Assembly: GCF_001899765.1 (NCBI RefSeq)
Contig: NZ_MKWM01000073.1
Location: 83,129 to 107,128, forward strand
DNA from: Thiobacillus sp. 63-78
GTDB taxonomy: Bacteria; Pseudomonadota; Gammaproteobacteria; Burkholderiales; Thiobacillaceae
Length of the DNA stretch: 24,000 nucleotides
Direction: 5' to 3'
The notes beneath the pieces were generated by a model. It saw only the letters and a program-made list of their open reading frames with translations. It had not been told where the DNA came from and searched no databases. The position numbers and the translations under genes were made by a program. How positions within the stretch are numbered: the first letter of the stretch is position 1; every line of letters starts with the position of its first letter. Positions 8,495 through 18,992 of this stretch are shown here, piece after piece.

Positions 8495-10297
8495 TCAGAT
8501 ATCCGGATGATCCAGGCAGGCCCGCAAGGCTTCCGCCAGGAGGTGCATGTCTTCGATAGCGGTCACATAAGGCGGCATCACATAAACCGTCTGGCCGACG
8601 GGGCGGATGAACACGCCGTGGTCCAGCGCCGCCCGATGGAAACGGGCCGCAAAACCGGGGCGGGTCTGCGCGACGTCAAATGCCCAGATCATCCCCCTAT
8701 GCCGGAAATGGCGTACCCGCGGATGCGCCGCCACGTCCGCCAGCAAGTCCGTGAATGCCTGAGCCTTGACGCGGTTGGCGTCGATGACCCGGTCGCTCTC
8801 GAAAATGTCCAGCACCGCCAGCGCCGCCCGGCAGGCAAGCGGATTGCCGGTGTAGGAATGCGAATGCAGGAAACCGCGGGCGGTGGCGTCGCCGTAGAAC
8901 GCAGCATAGACGGCGTCGGTCGTCAGTACCGCCGACAGCGGCAGATAGCCGCCGGTGAGGCCCTTGGACAGGCAGATGAAGTCGGGGCGGATCGCGGCCT
9001 GCCTCGGTCCTTCTCCCCTCTCCCGCTGGGAGAGGGGCTGGGGGTGAGGGTACGCGCCAGCATGCAAGGCAGTCCAAACCTCCGAGAGCACTGCCTCGGT
9101 TTCCTGCAATACCTGATTGTTCCAGAAACGCACGACCCGCAAACCCTGCTGCCCAAGCCACGCATCGCGACGGGCGTCACGTGCGGGCTCAGCATGCTGC
9201 CCCCCATCCAGCTCGATGACCAGGCCAGCCTCATGGCAATAAAAATCCAGCGTGTAGGGCGGCATGGGATGCTGCCGACGGAATTTATGTCCGCCCAGAC
9301 GGCGATCCCGCAGCAGATACCACATCAGGGATTCTGCGTCGGTTTGTTCGTGGCGCAGCTTGCGTGCGAATTCGATCGCTTCGGGGGGGATATCTGGAAA
9401 ACGCTGGGCGTCTTGGCCAACAGCGGCGCTCTTACCGCCTGCGCCCTCACCCCCGGCCCCTCTCCCCGGGGGAGAGGGGAGCGATGCCTGCTCGAACGCG
9501 AACATCGTGCCGGTGCGGCCGAAACCCACGGCAATCTCGTCGGCGATCAGGTGCACCCGATATTGGTCGCACAGTTCGCGCGCGCGGGTCAGGTACGCCG
9601 GGTGGTACATCGCCATGCCCGCCGCGCCCTGCACCAGCGGCTCGACGATGAAGGCGGCGGTGGTGGCGGCGTGCTCGGCCAGATGTGCTTCCAGCGCCTC
9701 TGCACAGCGCAGTGCCCAGGCCTCGGCCGATTCGCCGGGCTCGGCCCGCCGCGCATCCGGCGTCGGCACCTGTACGCTGTGGCGCAGCAAGGGCGCGTAG
9801 GTGTCCTTGAACAGCGGGATATCGGTCACCGACAGCGCACCGACGGTTTCGCCGTGGTAGCCGTTTTGCAGGCTGACGAACGCGTTTTTCTCCGGCTGCC
9901 CTGCGTTGCGCCAGTAGTGCGCGCTCATTTTCAGTGCGATTTCGGTGGCCGAGGCGCCGTCCGAGCCATAAAACGCATGGCCCAGCCCGGTCAGTGCAGC
10001 CAGCCGCTCGGACAGCTCCACCACCGGCGCATGCGTCGCGCCGGCCAGCATCACATGTTCGATCCTGCCGAGTTGATCGACGATGGCGGCATTGATGCGC
10101 GGATTGCAATGGCCGAACAGGTTGACCCACCAGCTGGATATCGCGTCCAGATAACGCCGTCCGCCGGGATCGATCAGCCACGCCCCCTCGCCGCGCGCGA
10201 TCGCCAGCGGCGGCGTGGCTTCCAGCGTTTTCATCTGGGTGCAGGGGTGCCAGACGGCGGCACGGGTGCGGCGGATCAAATCATGGTCTGTTGTCAT
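8495..10297 (-). CDS. bioA: adenosylmethionine-8-amino-7-oxononanoate aminotransferase (BioA) carrying a 163-codon in-frame insertion
   Basis: 600-aa ORF. Residues 1-270 and 436-600 are colinear with BioA: WHPCTQMK, LDAISSWWVNLFGHCNPRI, ADEIAVGFGRTGTMFAFEQA and, after the insert, IRPDFICLSKGLTGGYLPLSAV with the PLP lysine, then SYTGNPLACRAALA. Residues about 271-435 are foreign (see element 9002..9485). Without the insert the protein would be 437 aa, a normal BioA length. Confidence 0.85.
   Translation of the reverse strand: MTTDHDLIRRTRAAVWHPCTQMKTLEATPPLAIARGEGAWLIDPGGRRYLDAISSWWVNLFGHCNPRINAAIVDQLGRIEHVMLAGATHAPVVELSERLAALTGLGHAFYGSDGASATEIALKMSAHYWRNAGQPEKNAFVSLQNGYHGETVGALSVTDIPLFKDTYAPLLRHSVQVPTPDARRAEPGESAEAWALRCAEALEAHLAEHAATTAAFIVEPLVQGAAGMAMYHPAYLTRARELCDQYRVHLIADEIAVGFGRTGTMFAFEQASLPSPPGRGAGGEGAGGKSAAVGQDAQRFPDIPPEAIEFARKLRHEQTDAESLMWYLLRDRRLGGHKFRRQHPMPPYTLDFYCHEAGLVIELDGGQHAEPARDARRDAWLGQQGLRVVRFWNNQVLQETEAVLSEVWTALHAGAYPHPQPLSQRERGEGPRQAAIRPDFICLSKGLTGGYLPLSAVLTTDAVYAAFYGDATARGFLHSHSYTGNPLACRAALAVLDIFESDRVIDANRVKAQAFTDLLADVAAHPRVRHFRHRGMIWAFDVAQTRPGFAARFHRAALDHGVFIRPVGQTVYVMPPYVTAIEDMHLLAEALRACLDHPDI
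9013..9050. repeat. hairpin module, left terminal inverted repeat of the bioA cassette
   Basis: CCCCTCTCCC (9015-9024), loop GCT, GGGAGAGGGG (9028-9037), followed by CTGGGGGTGAGGG (9038-9050). Confidence 0.8.
9074..9376 (-). other. DUF559 (Vsr-like, PD-(D/E)xK-fold) endonuclease domain embedded in the bioA reading frame
   Basis: The translation FARKLRHEQTDAESLMWYLLRDRRLGGHKFRRQHPMPPYTLDFYCHEAGLVIELDGGQHAEPARDARRDAWLGQQGLRVVRFWNNQVLQETEAVLSEVW matches the characteristic DUF559 pattern: AR.LR...T.AE..LW..LR......KFRRQ.P...Y..DF.C......IE.DG..H.....D..RD..L...G..V.RF.N..V. Confidence 0.75.
9444..9481. repeat. hairpin module, right terminal inverted repeat of the bioA cassette
   Basis: CCCTCACCCCC (9444-9454), GGC, CCCCTCTCCCC (9457-9467), then GGGGAGAGGGG (9469-9479). 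Its reverse complement aligns with 9013-9050 with only a few mismatches or indels. Confidence 0.8.
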
Positions 10298-15595: not shown

Positions 15596-18019
15596 TTACT
15601 TCGTCAACGCCATGAACAACTGCGGCAGTTGCTCGGGCAAGCGCTCGACGCGATCGATGACGCTGAACTGGCGACCGAAGATGTCGCTGACGTATTCGTC
15701 AGCTTTTGGATCGAGGCTGATGCAGTAGGTGAAAATATTGTCCCGGTCGAGTTCCTTCACTGCTTGCCGGGCGTCTTCGACCAGCAGGCGTTCGTCGTGG
15801 GCATCGACGTCGGACGGCCTGCCGTCGGTGAGGATGAGCATCAGCTTCTTGTCGGCGCGGCGCGCGCCGAGCGTGTGCGCGGCGTGGCGCATCGCCGCGC
15901 CCATGCGGGTGGACCAGCCCGCCTGCATCGCGGCCAGGCGCGCCTTGACGTCGTCGTCGAACGCTTCGCCGTAGCCCTTGATGTGCAGGTAGCGCACGTC
16001 GTGACGGGTGTTGGAATGGAAGCCGGCGATGGCGAACGCATCGCCCAGCTTCTCGATCGCCCAGGCCAGGAGCGAAACCGCTTCCTGGCTGAGTTCGAGG
16101 ATGGTCTGCTCGCTGCCCGCCGCCTTGTCGTTGAGCGATTCCGACAGGTCCAGCAGCAGCATGACGGCGATGTCGCGGCCGTCGGTGCGATGGCTCATGT
16201 TGATGCGCGGGTCGGGGGTGGCGCCGCCCTTGAAGTCGATCAGCGCGCGCAGCGCGACGTCGAGATCGAGCTCGCTGCCTTCTTCCTGATAGCGGATGCG
16301 CACCTTGTCCTGCGGCTTCAAGAGGTCGAGCATCTTCTTCAGCCGCTTGGCGAGCGCGCCGTGTTTGGCGAGCAGACGGTCGATGTCGGCGGCATTGCCA
16401 TGCGGGTGCAGCGCTTCGTACACGCTGACCCAGTCCGGGCGGTAGGTCTGGCTCGCGTAGTCCCACTCCGGATAATGGCGCGGCGGCAGACCGTGAATCT
16501 CCTCGCCCGGCTCGATCTTGCGCGGCTCGTCGAAGGCGTCTTCCTCGTCGCCGGCCTCGATGAATTTCCACAACTGGCGGTTGTCGTCGCGGTAGTCGAC
16601 CACGGTGTCGGCGAAGTGGACGCGGGCGAACTGGTCGCTCTGGCGGCGGGTTTTGGCCACATAGTTCAAGGCCAGCGCGGCGATTTCTTTGGTGCTCGAT
16701 TCTCCGTGCGCCATGACGGCATGGAAACGCTGCACGGTGTCCAGCAGGTCGGCGTCAATGTAGCCGTGCGCCGGGTCGAGCAACGCGCGCGACAACATCG
16801 CCATGCGGTGACGCAGGCAGGAGGTGGTCTCCGGATCGCAGGCGGTCTCCAAAGGCTTCGGATGCAGCGCGAGGAACAGCTTGCGCAGACCGGGGTAGGC
16901 GCGGATCAGGAGCGTCTCGACGCGGCAGTCCTCGAAGAACTCCACCGCCATGCGCTGGAACGGGCTCCAGTTGTCGGCGACCTGCGCGTCGGACCAGCGA
17001 CGGTGGCCGACGATGTGGGCGAGCGCGGCGCGGTAGCGGTCGAGACCGGAGATGACGGTTTTCCCCTCGCCCGCTTGCGGGAGAGGGTGGTGCGAAGCAC
17101 CGGGAGAGGGCCGCGTGCGTCCCTCTCCCCCGGCCTCTCGTTCAATCGGTTTGGGCTCAGCTTTTTCCCCCTCTCCCTCGGGGAGAGGGTTGGGGTGAGG
17201 GAACGGGGAGGAAGGGAGGATCAGGTCGTCGTAGACGTCGGGCAGACGGATGCCGAGCTTGTCGTAATAGGGAATCGGCTTGCGGATTTCGTCGAACGCT
17301 GTCGAATACGGCACCAGGTGGTCGTGGTCCTGCCACAGGCCGCGCAGATACAGGTCCAGTTTGCGCTCGACGTCGATCAATAACGTCCCATGGCGCTCGC
17401 GTTGCAGCACGGCGCGGCTGTCGGCCGATTGCAGGCTGAAGTAATCCTTCTGCCGCTCGGGGTGGCCACGGTAGTTGCGGATGCCGTATTCGACCCAGTT
17501 CCCGAGGCCGGCGATGGAAAGCTGCGCGAGCAGGCCGGGCGCCTGGGCGAAGAATTCCGGCAGGCCGGGGCTGGGAAAAGTGGTGTGGTGGCCGTGGATG
17601 GAGCCGGTGGTGCGCGCCTTCAGGTCTAGCGCAATGTCGAGATAGTGCTGCAGTTGATCTTCGGATTGCAGCCGCCTGGCCACCGGCGCCAGCGTCTGCA
17701 GGAAAGGCGTGATCGCGCGGCCGTTGGGTGATTTCTGCAGGCGCTGGATCAGCGCCATCACCGCCGGCAGCGCGGACTCGCCGACCGCCTGCGCGGCCGA
17801 CGGCCACTCCTCCAGGAAGGCCAGCAGCGGTTCGACGCCGCGCCCCAGCTTGCCGATGACGCGGCCGGCTTCGAGGTAGGCGTCGAGCCCCGCGCGCGTG
17901 AGCACCGCCAGCGCTTCCGCCATGACATCGTCGAACACCGCCTCCACCTGCGGGAAACGGGTGTCGAGCTGGCGCCAGTAGGCGGCCATGAGGGGGTGCT
18001 GGTAGACGGTTTCGGTCAT
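15596..18019 (-). CDS. cbbO: CbbO, von Willebrand factor A-domain adaptor of the CbbQO RuBisCO activase, carrying an in-frame repeat-derived insert
   Basis: ORF 15596..18208. Start set to ATG 18019 (MTETVYQHPLMAAYWRQLD), because the upstream 63 codons are encoded by a repeat element. C-terminal VWA domain with MIDAS DLSES (VMLLLDLSESLN) and LILTDGRPSDVD. Located immediately downstream of cbbQ. No SD before ATG 18019. Confidence 0.88.
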   Translation of the reverse strand: MTETVYQHPLMAAYWRQLDTRFPQVEAVFDDVMAEALAVLTRAGLDAYLEAGRVIGKLGRGVEPLLAFLEEWPSAAQAVGESALPAVMALIQRLQKSPNGRAITPFLQTLAPVARRLQSEDQLQHYLDIALDLKARTTGSIHGHHTTFPSPGLPEFFAQAPGLLAQLSIAGLGNWVEYGIRNYRGHPERQKDYFSLQSADSRAVLQRERHGTLLIDVERKLDLYLRGLWQDHDHLVPYSTAFDEIRKPIPYYDKLGIRLPDVYDDLILPSSPFPHPNPLPEGEGEKAEPKPIEREAGGEGRTRPSPGASHHPLPQAGEGKTVISGLDRYRAALAHIVGHRRWSDAQVADNWSPFQRMAVEFFEDCRVETLLIRAYPGLRKLFLALHPKPLETACDPETTSCLRHRMAMLSRALLDPAHGYIDADLLDTVQRFHAVMAHGESSTKEIAALALNYVAKTRRQSDQFARVHFADTVVDYRDDNRQLWKFIEAGDEEDAFDEPRKIEPGEEIHGLPPRHYPEWDYASQTYRPDWVSVYEALHPHGNAADIDRLLAKHGALAKRLKKMLDLLKPQDKVRIRYQEEGSELDLDVALRALIDFKGGATPDPRINMSHRTDGRDIAVMLLLDLSESLNDKAAGSEQTILELSQEAVSLLAWAIEKLGDAFAIAGFHSNTRHDVRYLHIKGYGEAFDDDVKARLAAMQAGWSTRMGAAMRHAAHTLGARRADKKLMLILTDGRPSDVDAHDERLLVEDARQAVKELDRDNIFTYCISLDPKADEYVSDIFGRQFSVIDRVERLPEQLPQLFMALTK
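17063..17201. repeat. cluster of three hairpin modules (same family as the bioA cassette TIRs) inside cbbO
   Basis: H1 17063-17087: CCCCTCGCCCGCTTGCGGGAGAGGG. H2: GGGAGAGGG 17102-17110 pairing with CCCTCTCCC 17121-17129. H3: CCCTCTCCC 17169-17177, loop TCG, GGGAGAGGG 17181-17189, followed by TTGGGGTGAGGG (17190-17201). Translated in the cbbO frame as PHPNPLPEGEGEKAEPKPIEREAGGEGRTRPSPGASHHPLPQAGEGK. Confidence 0.7.
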
Positions 18020-18040
18020 GGGTAGGGTGGTGAAAACCGG

Positions 18041-18182
18041 TTCACCACAGAGACACAGAGGCACAGAGGCACAGAGGCACAGAGAAAACCATCCAGCACT
18101 CGACATCCAATCGAGCGCCAGATTTATTTCCAGCACACCTGGTTCTGCTCTTTTCTCTGTGTCTCTGTGCCTCTGTGGTGAA
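18041..18182. repeat. inverted-repeat element built from CACAGAG(G/A) octamers, at the cbbQ-cbbO junction
   Basis: Left arm: TTCAC followed by 5 tandem octamers (18046-18085) and AAA. Right arm 18150-18182 is the reverse complement with 3 octamers and ends in GGTGAA. The outer 12 nt are perfectly complementary (TTCACCACAGAG / CTCTGTGGTGAA). The central non-repeated part is about 60 nt. Confidence 0.7.
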
Positions 18183-18188
18183 AGCATT

Positions 18189-18992
18189 TCAAGCAAACGT
18201 CGCATCAACCGCGTGATCCAGCGTCTCGCGAATATCGGCGTCGTCGGTGATCGGGCGCACCAGCGCCATGCGGCAGGCGTCGGCAGGCGCCACGCCGTCC
18301 TTGATCAGCGTCGCCGCGTACACCAGCAGGCGGGTCGAGATGCCTTCGTCGAGTCCGTGGCCTTTCAGATTGCGCGCGACGCCGCCGATCTTCACCAGTT
18401 GTGCCGCCACCGTTTCGTCCATGCCGGTTTCCTGCGCCACAATCTGCGCTTCCAGCGCGGCGTCGGGATAGTCGAAATCGAACGCGGTGAAGCGCTGCTT
18501 GGTCGACTGCTTGAGATCCTTCATCAGCGTCTGGTAGCCGGGGTTGTAGGAAATCACCAACTGGAAGTCGGGGTGCGCGCGGATCAGCTCGCCCTTCTTG
18601 TCGAGCGGCAGGGTGCGGCGGTGGTCGGTCAGCGGGTGGATCACCACGGTGGTGTCCTGGCGTGCCTCCACAATTTCATCGAGATAGCAGATGGCGCCGA
18701 TGCGCGCGGCGGTGGTCAACGGGCCGTCGAGCCAGCGGGTGCCGTTGGCTTCCAGCAGATAGCGGCCGACCAGATCGGACGCGGTCATGTCCTCGTTGCA
18801 GGCCACGGTGATCAGCGGCTTGCCGAGCTTCCACGCCATGTATTCGACGAAGCGCGATTTCCCGCACCCTGTTGGCCCTTTCACCATCACCGGCAGGCGG
18901 TTGCGGTAGGCCGCTTCGTACAGCGCGACTTCGTTCTTCTGCTGCTGGTAGAAGGGTTCCTGCTGAACCTTGTACTGGTCCTTGTCGATCAT
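18189..18992 (-). CDS. cbbQ: CbbQ, MoxR-type AAA+ ATPase of the CbbQO RuBisCO activase
   Basis: ORF 18189..19007 (TTG). ATG 18992 ([29 protein letters not shown]) is preferred because GAGG lies 7 nt upstream. Walker [21 protein letters not shown], Walker [12 protein letters not shown], typical CbbQ/NirQ sequence. Confidence 0.93.

Follow-up and report, generated by a model that had tools for sequence, protein, structure and literature searches.

The cbbO gene of Thiobacillus sp. 63-78 encodes a CbbQO-type Rubisco activase adaptor of 807 residues, counted from the conserved ATG (15596–18019, minus strand), and its coding frame crosses a short stretch of hairpin-rich repeat DNA. This raises the question of what such DNA is, how it came to stand inside a conserved gene and how it is related to the nuclease cassette carried in frame by bioA on the same contig. 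All coordinates are positions in the window, that is, the whole 24,000-nt stretch that was analysed (NZ_MKWM01000073.1, 83,129–107,128); G000 denotes the genome of the window, other G numbers its Thiobacillus relatives, C a contig and L a locus. Our results show that the segment consists of nested modules of the BoxC/PIT/TMECO repeat family inserted in frame, and we put the probability of the whole reading, including the stepwise arrival and the persistence proposed below, at about 0.8. There are three such modules in the nest; in each, one C-rich and one G-rich arm are followed by a G-rich tail, an architecture with the potential to fold into a hairpin or intrastrand triplex.

In the protein, the segment is a variable linker of 58 codons (17051–17224, minus strand; LILPSSPFPHPNPLPEGEGEKAEPKPIEREAGGEGRTRPSPGASHHPLPQAGEGKTVI) that is rich in Pro, Gly, Glu and Ser and lies between DVYDD and SGLDRY. 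The minus-strand frame is open through it, as stated in the preliminary description, and the translation reproduces the peptide quoted there exactly; the added length had been underestimated at 45–50 residues, since relative to the ancestral linker of 4 codons the net gain is 162 nt, or 54 residues. CbbO of the window is 85–91% identical to Thiobacillus proteins named CbbO or NorD. In the 120 CbbO proteins nearest to it, which are all of Thiobacillus type and 82–91% identical over aligned positions, the linker has 4 residues in 77, 8–9 residues in nine and 15–59 residues in 34. The 15–59-residue linkers are assembled from the recurring units PSPASGRGAGGEG, PSPGASHHPLPQAGEG and PHPNPLPEGEG..KAEPKPIER. 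Across Thiobacillus, CbbO alleles carry 0–3 modules and natural linkers range from 4 to 59 residues, with the reading frame maintained in 43/43 expanded alleles. Most orthologues thus lack the insert, and no equivalent segment is found in them generally. On C30 of the same genome, a cbbO paralogue runs through the linker site without interruption, and all 43 CbbO/NorD homologues compared at 27–53% identity have a short linker and no comparable Pro/Gly/Glu-rich segment, which indicates that the short linker is the ancestral state; short linkers at this site, in 77 of the 120 closest proteins, the paralogue and the distant homologues alike, span 4–10 residues.

A similar picture is obtained from the DNA of 12 same-genus genomes, in which the cbbO orthologue matches as two abutting pieces with a hypervariable junction, DVYDD-x-SG(L/I)DRY. 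The linker has 4 residues in five of these genomes, and the others carry +15, +42, +45 or +54 nt of hairpin-type sequence. The loop can also hold unrelated repetitive extragenic palindromic (REP) families, of the GTAGGGTGCGCCGTGCGCACC and GCGGGCAAGCCCGCTCCCAC types, which add 324 nt in G010 (L013, G010:C67) and 72 nt in G001 (L008); cbbO of G010 has a second extra segment of ∼147 nt, ∼100 codons downstream of the loop.

The building block of the segment is the 9-mer GGGAGAGGG/CCCTCTCCC, which occurs nine times in the window where 0.15 occurrences are expected, four times in bioA and five times in cbbO (17079+, 17102+, 17121−, 17169−, 17181+). Two hairpins are formed, one at 17064–17087 (9 bp with one mismatch, loop GCTTGC) and one at 17169–17189 (a perfect 9 bp, loop TCG). 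The former belongs to module M3 (17064–17110, plus strand), which runs CCCTCGCCC, the loop GCTTGC, GGGAGAGGG, a 14-nt second loop that is itself a mini-hairpin (GGTGC-GAA-GCACC) and the tail GGGAGAGGG; it encodes PSPGASHHPLPQAGEG, and the same module type is present in IleRS (PSPDPAGHPLPLAGEG) and in many CbbO alleles. The latter belongs to module M2 (17140–17201, plus strand), 62 nt that encode PHPNPLPEGEGEKAEPKPIER and comprise a 29-nt extension (GTTCAATCGGTTTGGGCTCAGCTTTTTCC) followed by the type-A core CCCTCTCCC-TCG-GGGAGAGGG-TTG-GGGTGAGGG (17169–17201); on the coding strand M2 reads CCCTCACCCC-AA-CCCTCTCCC-CGA-GGGAGAGGG-GGAAAAAGCTGAGCCCAAACCGATTGAAC. Module M1 is in two parts on the minus strand. 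Its distal part (17121–17139) is on the coding strand a G-arm remnant, GAGAGG, then CC and the tail GGGGGAGAGGG; it is of type B, with a CCG-type second loop, and encodes (E)AGGEG. Its proximal part (17205–17219) is a degenerate C-arm, CCTCCCTTCCTCCCC on the coding strand, that encodes (I)LPSSP and aligns with CTCCCCTCTCCC of one- and two-module alleles.

That M2 is nested in M1 follows from the DNA of three metagenomic cbbO alleles (P0006, P0007 and P0017) compared with the window allele. P0007 has two modules and is without M2; its uninterrupted M1 reads CTCCCCTCTCCC-GCAAGC-GGGAGAGGG-GCC-GGGGGAGAGGG, and its M3 reads CCCTCTCCC, the 14-nt mini-hairpin and CCCTCTCCC-GCAAGC-GGGAGAGGG. In the window allele M1 and M3 are as in P0007, and M2 splits M1 between its C-arm and its G-arm; in P0006 and P0017, too, M2 sits in a module split in this manner. 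The preliminary description had counted three hairpin modules here, and three modules are indeed present, with two hairpins. The middle pairing (17102–17129), which places its G-arm first, joins the tail of M3 with that of M1; given the position of M2 inside M1, it is therefore a chance pairing of two adjacent tails and not a module, and the third module is the split M1. Nor do two cbbO copies share the tail seen at the bioA cassette, as had been thought: an exact TGGGGTGAGGG tail is found on one copy only (17191–17201), whereas M1 ends in GGGGGAGAGGG and M3 in GGGAGAGGG.

The family to which these modules belong, known from Escherichia coli and other Proteobacteria as BoxC or potential intrastrand triplex (PIT) elements, is described by the TMECO pattern, CCCTCNCCC-N3-6-GGGNGAGGG-N3-GGGNGAGGG (Holder et al. 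2015, PMC4666352, which cites earlier work by Bachellier and by Hoyne/Maher). In E. coli K-12 these motifs are reported to be always intergenic, to fall into two second-loop types (A, TTA; B, CCG), with one of each in every inverted pair, to have no mobility genes nearby and to be associated with local genome instability (PMC4666352). The M2 core (17169–17201) matches the pattern exactly, with no match in shuffled sequences; M1, with a 2-nt second loop, and M3, with its 14-nt one, match a relaxed pattern only. The genome (3.21 Mb, 63% GC) contains nine exact and ∼24 relaxed three-block copies, against none in five shuffles, so the hairpin module is present well beyond the window. Enrichment of the plain 9-mer was discarded as a signal because the 72 bare copies of GGGAGAGGG genome-wide are roughly the number expected by chance (base-composition estimate); the signal is the paired three-block arrangement.

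Thiobacillus shares with E. coli the three-block design and sequence, as seen in the M2 core, and the two second-loop types, TT(A/G) and CCG, both TTG and (G)CC(G) being found in this genome. The modules are likewise multi-copy, with numbers that vary strongly among related genomes (0 to 50 strict copies among 41 Thiobacillus genomes), and they form inverted pairs in which both types are represented; the free-standing nuclease cassettes examined show no single fixed pairing. The differences are that about half of the copies are translated within conserved genes, that module pairs here bracket a nuclease gene and that some copies have the 29-nt extension or the 14-nt second loop.

The translated copies are not confined to cbbO. 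About half of the ∼24 copies in the genome are in frame within conserved genes, and open frames cross modules at many loci; the genes are eight in number (LeuRS, IleRS, AlaRS, HrpA, UbiB, YgiQ, BioA and CbbO), with 12 intact hairpins and several decayed copies between them, which bears out and extends the earlier proposal that a second conserved gene tolerates such repeats. In six of them (LeuRS, IleRS, AlaRS, HrpA, UbiB and YgiQ) full-length, single-stretch NCBIfam equivalog matches span the modules. The copies inside cbbO, alaS and hrpA are of one subtype, which has TCG as its loop and GGGTGAGGG as its tail, and the M2 extension (..ATCGGTTTGGGC..) is common to ten copies and to those in alaS and hrpA; the ubiB copy is also extended. 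The alaS module is present in three of 36 genus genomes (L065/L066/L069, corresponding to G000, G003 and G051), and comparison of filled with empty sites shows that 12 nt (TQTA) were replaced by 63–81 nt with no target duplication. The G000 alaS copy has in addition an 18-nt change that disrupts its hairpin. In ileS (L057, G000:C35:2029-5118) two BoxC-type modules are accompanied by an in-frame repeat of another type near the C-terminus (..FGQSLSKPSSDTQGPSTSSGRTG..).

Over 31 + 21 nt, M2 of cbbO has the same sequence as the copy in alaS of this genome; M2 in the cbbO of other strains differs from the window's M2 at ∼6 positions. This argues that at least M2 is a member of a set of copies that is dispersed and was homogeneous until recently, and that it did not arise by local duplication. 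We propose that the modules reached cbbO stepwise: a type-B module, M1, would have come first, M3 would then have been added next to it, and M2 would last have entered the M1 hairpin, at least M2 having been copied from another locus. Their persistence could be due to a scarcity or complete lack of stop codons in every frame, to the survival of frame-keeping copies only and to a loop that tolerates changes in length.

Two further comparisons bear on what kind of element this may be. The likeness to Rickettsia palindromic elements (RPEs; summarised in PMC10969869) is one of analogy: these are also small palindromic repeats that lie in frame in many unrelated housekeeping genes and are translated as additional peptide segments at tolerant sites, but they are ∼100–150 bp long against 33–62 nt for the modules here, differ in composition, occur in Rickettsia hosts rather than in a free-living betaproteobacterial autotroph and have no nuclease cassette. 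The segment had also been described as a derivative, similar to a miniature inverted-repeat transposable element (MITE), of the bioA nuclease element, reduced to its ends. The part of this that stands is that it is in-frame repeat DNA whose family also supplies the two ends of the bioA cassette, so that its modules are non-coding kin of a nuclease-bearing unit, that nuclease and repeat abundance co-vary and that, as with MITEs, a protein-coding relative is greatly exceeded in number by short multi-copy elements with which it shares its end sequences. It is not a pair of collapsed cassette ends: its modules are of three subtypes, one of them nested, and there are neither inverted ends nor a target duplication. 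Solo modules lack the terminal inverted repeats of MITEs (the M2 type runs from CCCTCACCCC.. to ..CCCAAACCGAT), the alaS comparison shows replacement of target bases, and the coding relative has a Vsr-like nuclease, not a transposase.

DUF559 has a Vsr-like nuclease fold, as in Vsr-like/EDxHD homing endonucleases such as I-Bth0305I. The bioA cassette resembles the latter in fold and in its in-frame siting in host genes; unlike them, it has no removing intron or intein, and the comparison does not extend to the nuclease-less cbbO segment. The cassette is the only DUF559 copy of the genome and lies in frame in bioA (8495–10297). Its ends are three-block modules at 9016–9050 (C-side end, plus strand) and 9444–9478 (N-side end, minus strand), both B-like in the second loop. 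The close similarity that had been noticed between a CbbO and a BioA peptide has its origin here, as PHPNPLPEGEGE (CbbO) and PHPQPLSQRERGEG (BioA) are translations of the same tail-plus-hairpin module and are 1 nt apart in the second loop. Because the nuclease sequences found at this same bioA position are diverged, the insertion is old or recurrent; at least four other Thiobacillus species have the cassette in the same position (loci L039, L041, L046 and L047).

DUF559 is carried by 15 of 41 genus genomes. Of 20 loci scanned in the genus, 18 are clear copies, and 12 of these have three-block modules within ∼125 nt of the domain, inward-facing on both sides in seven of the 12. Five of these represent the bioA insertion in other species, and one locus is in frame in a DNA methyltransferase. 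The five loci of a second DUF559 subfamily have no three-block modules. Two free-standing cassettes have a forward module ∼28 nt before the ATG and a reversed CCCTCACCCCAACCCCTCTCCCC module after the stop codon, CCCTCACCCCAACCCCTCTCCCC being the core of M2; in second loop, the upstream module is CA in L034 and TT in L036, and each downstream module is type-A-like (AA). Strict modules number a median of nine (range 1–50, n = 11) in genomes with the module-flanked DUF559 subfamily and 0.5 (0–8, n = 30) in those without (Mann–Whitney p = 6e-6, with related genomes not independent). DUF559 cassettes thus have the same module ends as the family and co-vary with module number, DUF559 being a nuclease and not a recognised mobiliser. 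This co-occurrence supports a functional link between nuclease and repeat, which could run in either direction.

Two further loci may be mentioned here. In G051 (G051:C1:1490847-1502165), 13 of 31 strict copies lie within ∼8 kb of a DUF559 gene (1493785–1494096), nine of them in one array of alternating orientation with a period of ∼70 nt. A DNA methyltransferase gene of the window's genome (L064, G000:C19:124500-128200) has inward-facing type-B modules 1.2 kb apart, and its relative in G014 (L038, G014:C3) has a DUF559 cassette in frame directly after AVRVSLVCFGH.

A mechanism for the copying step can be put forward tentatively, as the part of our proposal in which we have less confidence and on which we would not wager evenly. 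In it, the DUF559 Vsr-like nuclease would cut the DNA in or close to modules, and copying would begin when the breaks are repaired from other copies; such repair would account for the absent target duplication and for the replaced target bases. The wider form of the idea, in which BoxC/triplex modules are non-autonomous mobile elements, DUF559 (here present only as a domain of BioA) triggers their copying and cbbO is a record of stepwise insertion, is possible and on balance doubtful.

Several observations weigh against the reading developed here. Owing to the kinship of the genomes, nuclease and repeat count look more strongly correlated than they are, and some genomes without DUF559 reach up to eight modules. 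The sole DUF559 copy of the genome is fused inside BioA and has no start codon of its own, and this DUF559 subfamily is not known to have nuclease activity, a cut site or any transposition event to its name. At cbbO, the scatter of alleles on the protein tree described below could reflect recombination and not repeated insertion, and the structural model is too poor to establish the insert site as a surface loop. Finally, among 61 genus genomes the M2-inside-M1 junction is found in the window's cbbO only, which lends no support to a general module-to-module targeting; a preference of modules for the loops of other modules was rejected on this ground as unsupported beyond cbbO.

Some of these observations would be expected if DUF559 were a passenger. 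The modules might spread through host processes, such as template switching at hairpins or triplexes and recombination between copies, while the nuclease homes into, or is retained between, module pairs. This is a possible reading that we nevertheless hold to be rather unlikely. It agrees with the link drawn by Holder et al. (2015) between these motifs and local genome instability and with the lack of mobility genes near them in E. coli, with the ∼20:1 ratio of solo modules to a single nuclease copy, with the modules of genomes that have no DUF559 and with the M2 type: the 29-nt extension (..GCCCAAACCGAT..) is found at 0/20 genus DUF559 loci scanned. It is opposed by the strong co-occurrence of nuclease presence and module abundance across the genus, by the constant inward-facing geometry of the DUF559-flanking pairs and by the near-identical copies at the unlinked cbbO and alaS.

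A different possibility is that the long linker is adaptive and was selected, either as a flexible tether that alters the placement of CbbO on the CbbQ hexamer or as an mRNA structure that tunes translation. Its position in the protein is relevant to this. The insert comprises residues 266–323 of 807 and lies ∼300 residues N-terminal to the VWA domain, which occupies the C-terminal end from about residue 619 (Pfam); it is not, as had been suggested as a possibility, a linker between the N-terminal region and that domain. In Acidithiobacillus ferrooxidans CbbO, binding to the CbbQ hexamer maps to residues 1–444 and binding to Rubisco to the VWA/MIDAS part (PMC4660213), and comparison with this protein places the insert within the CbbQ-binding N-terminal region and not at the VWA boundary. 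Such a location, together with the maintenance of frame in every expanded allele, would suit a selected function. The segment is, however, absent from 64% of close orthologues and from all distant homologues examined, its content and length vary freely, with unrelated REP families at the same site in some genomes, and a protein database would in any case show intact-frame alleles only. Selection for the linker is in our view improbable.

Nor is the folding of the linker DNA exceptional, an idea that was abandoned: a 171-nt segment folds at −39.7 kcal/mol, z = −1.4 relative to shuffles, since shuffled sequence of the same G/C-run composition folds well too. Rfam gives chance matches only for the linker DNA, far under threshold, and Pfam finds no known domain in the 58-residue peptide. 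An AlphaFold2 model built from 120 close homologues, a shallow alignment, scores residues 269–320 at less than 50 in the predicted local distance difference test (pLDDT) and leaves them without secondary structure, flanked by two short strands; this is suggestive only, the whole model being poor (mean pLDDT 44.5, predicted template modelling score 0.27). A search of the PDB for a CbbO structure yielded nothing but NorD relatives, which align with the C-terminal VWA part; none covers the insert region.

The cbbO gene apart from its insert looks intact by sequence. The frame is open, the MIDAS residues D624, S626, S628, T704 and D732 (DxSxS..T..D) are invariant among the CbbO proteins compared, and the gene order cbbM-cbbQ-cbbO, taken from the open reading frame (ORF) list, is that of a complete form II operon. 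The start is set by orthologue matches that begin at M64 of an 870-residue, stop-free frame (ORF 15596–18208, minus strand).

The distribution of linkers among relatives was placed on a FastTree phylogeny of the 120 CbbO proteins, built with the linker columns removed and unrooted. Empty and filled states require at least 21 changes on it, 13 of which are forced by well-supported branches, and the four M2-bearing alleles do not group together. Repeated insertion is no more likely than one origin with later exchange of alleles and losses. The same cbbO loop is used by three repeat families that are not related to one another, which argues that tolerance of the protein at this loop is the main cause of the insertion hotspot.

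The remaining explanations fare worse. Local duplication or slippage of one original cbbO hairpin, with nothing contributed by other loci, might seem natural since one and the same 9-mer makes up the arms of M1, M2 and M3 and tandem module arrays occur in relatives such as G051. It is nevertheless a poor candidate, because neither loops, tails nor orientation are uniform among the three modules and because M2 has a 29-nt extension in common with the alaS, hrpA and ubiB copies and matches that of alaS exactly over 52 nt. It is very improbable that we are dealing with ordinary REP sequences and that a REP-associated tyrosine transposase (RAYT) moves them. The genome does encode one RAYT-like Y1 transposase of 238 residues on C42 (L051, G000:C42:33067-36390), but the gene lies between different inverted repeats, GGGGTCAGACACGAT, and has no GGGAGAGGG-type module within 1.5 kb. 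RAYT was set aside as a mobiliser, as no such module is present in the whole 3.3-kb locus and GGGGTCAGACACGAT is a separate repeat system. Finally, an ancestral Pro/Gly/Glu-rich segment deleted in most lineages, a direction on which parsimony on an unrooted tree is by itself silent, can hardly be reconciled with the short linker of the paralogue and 43 distant homologues and with DNA built of a dispersed repeat family.

Our reading of the cbbO segment as nested, in-frame repeat modules is of interest for several reasons. For ∼30 years BoxC/triplex-motif repeats have been on record as intergenic sequences that await an explanation, and the literature searched holds no report of their being translated within conserved enzymes or bracketing a nuclease gene. 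The CbbQO Rubisco activase is an assayable protein with natural linker alleles of 4–59 residues, in which tolerance of the insert is directly measurable, and the order of insertions, gains and losses at the loop is readable from population data. If nuclease-triggered copying is true, nature would have recorded, in the loop alleles with 0, 1, 2 and 3 modules, how a working enzyme takes up in-frame insertions step by step. For Thiobacillus, low-complexity segments that stem from repeats are to be expected in essential genes, in the output of annotation pipelines and in protein alignments.

Immediately upstream of cbbO, the cbbQ-cbbO spacer (18020–18208) is another repeat element, which in the cbbO frame reads SPQRHRDTEKRAE...SLCLCASVPLCLCGE; translated matches to it are found at seven places in G004 and at one each in G021 and G028.

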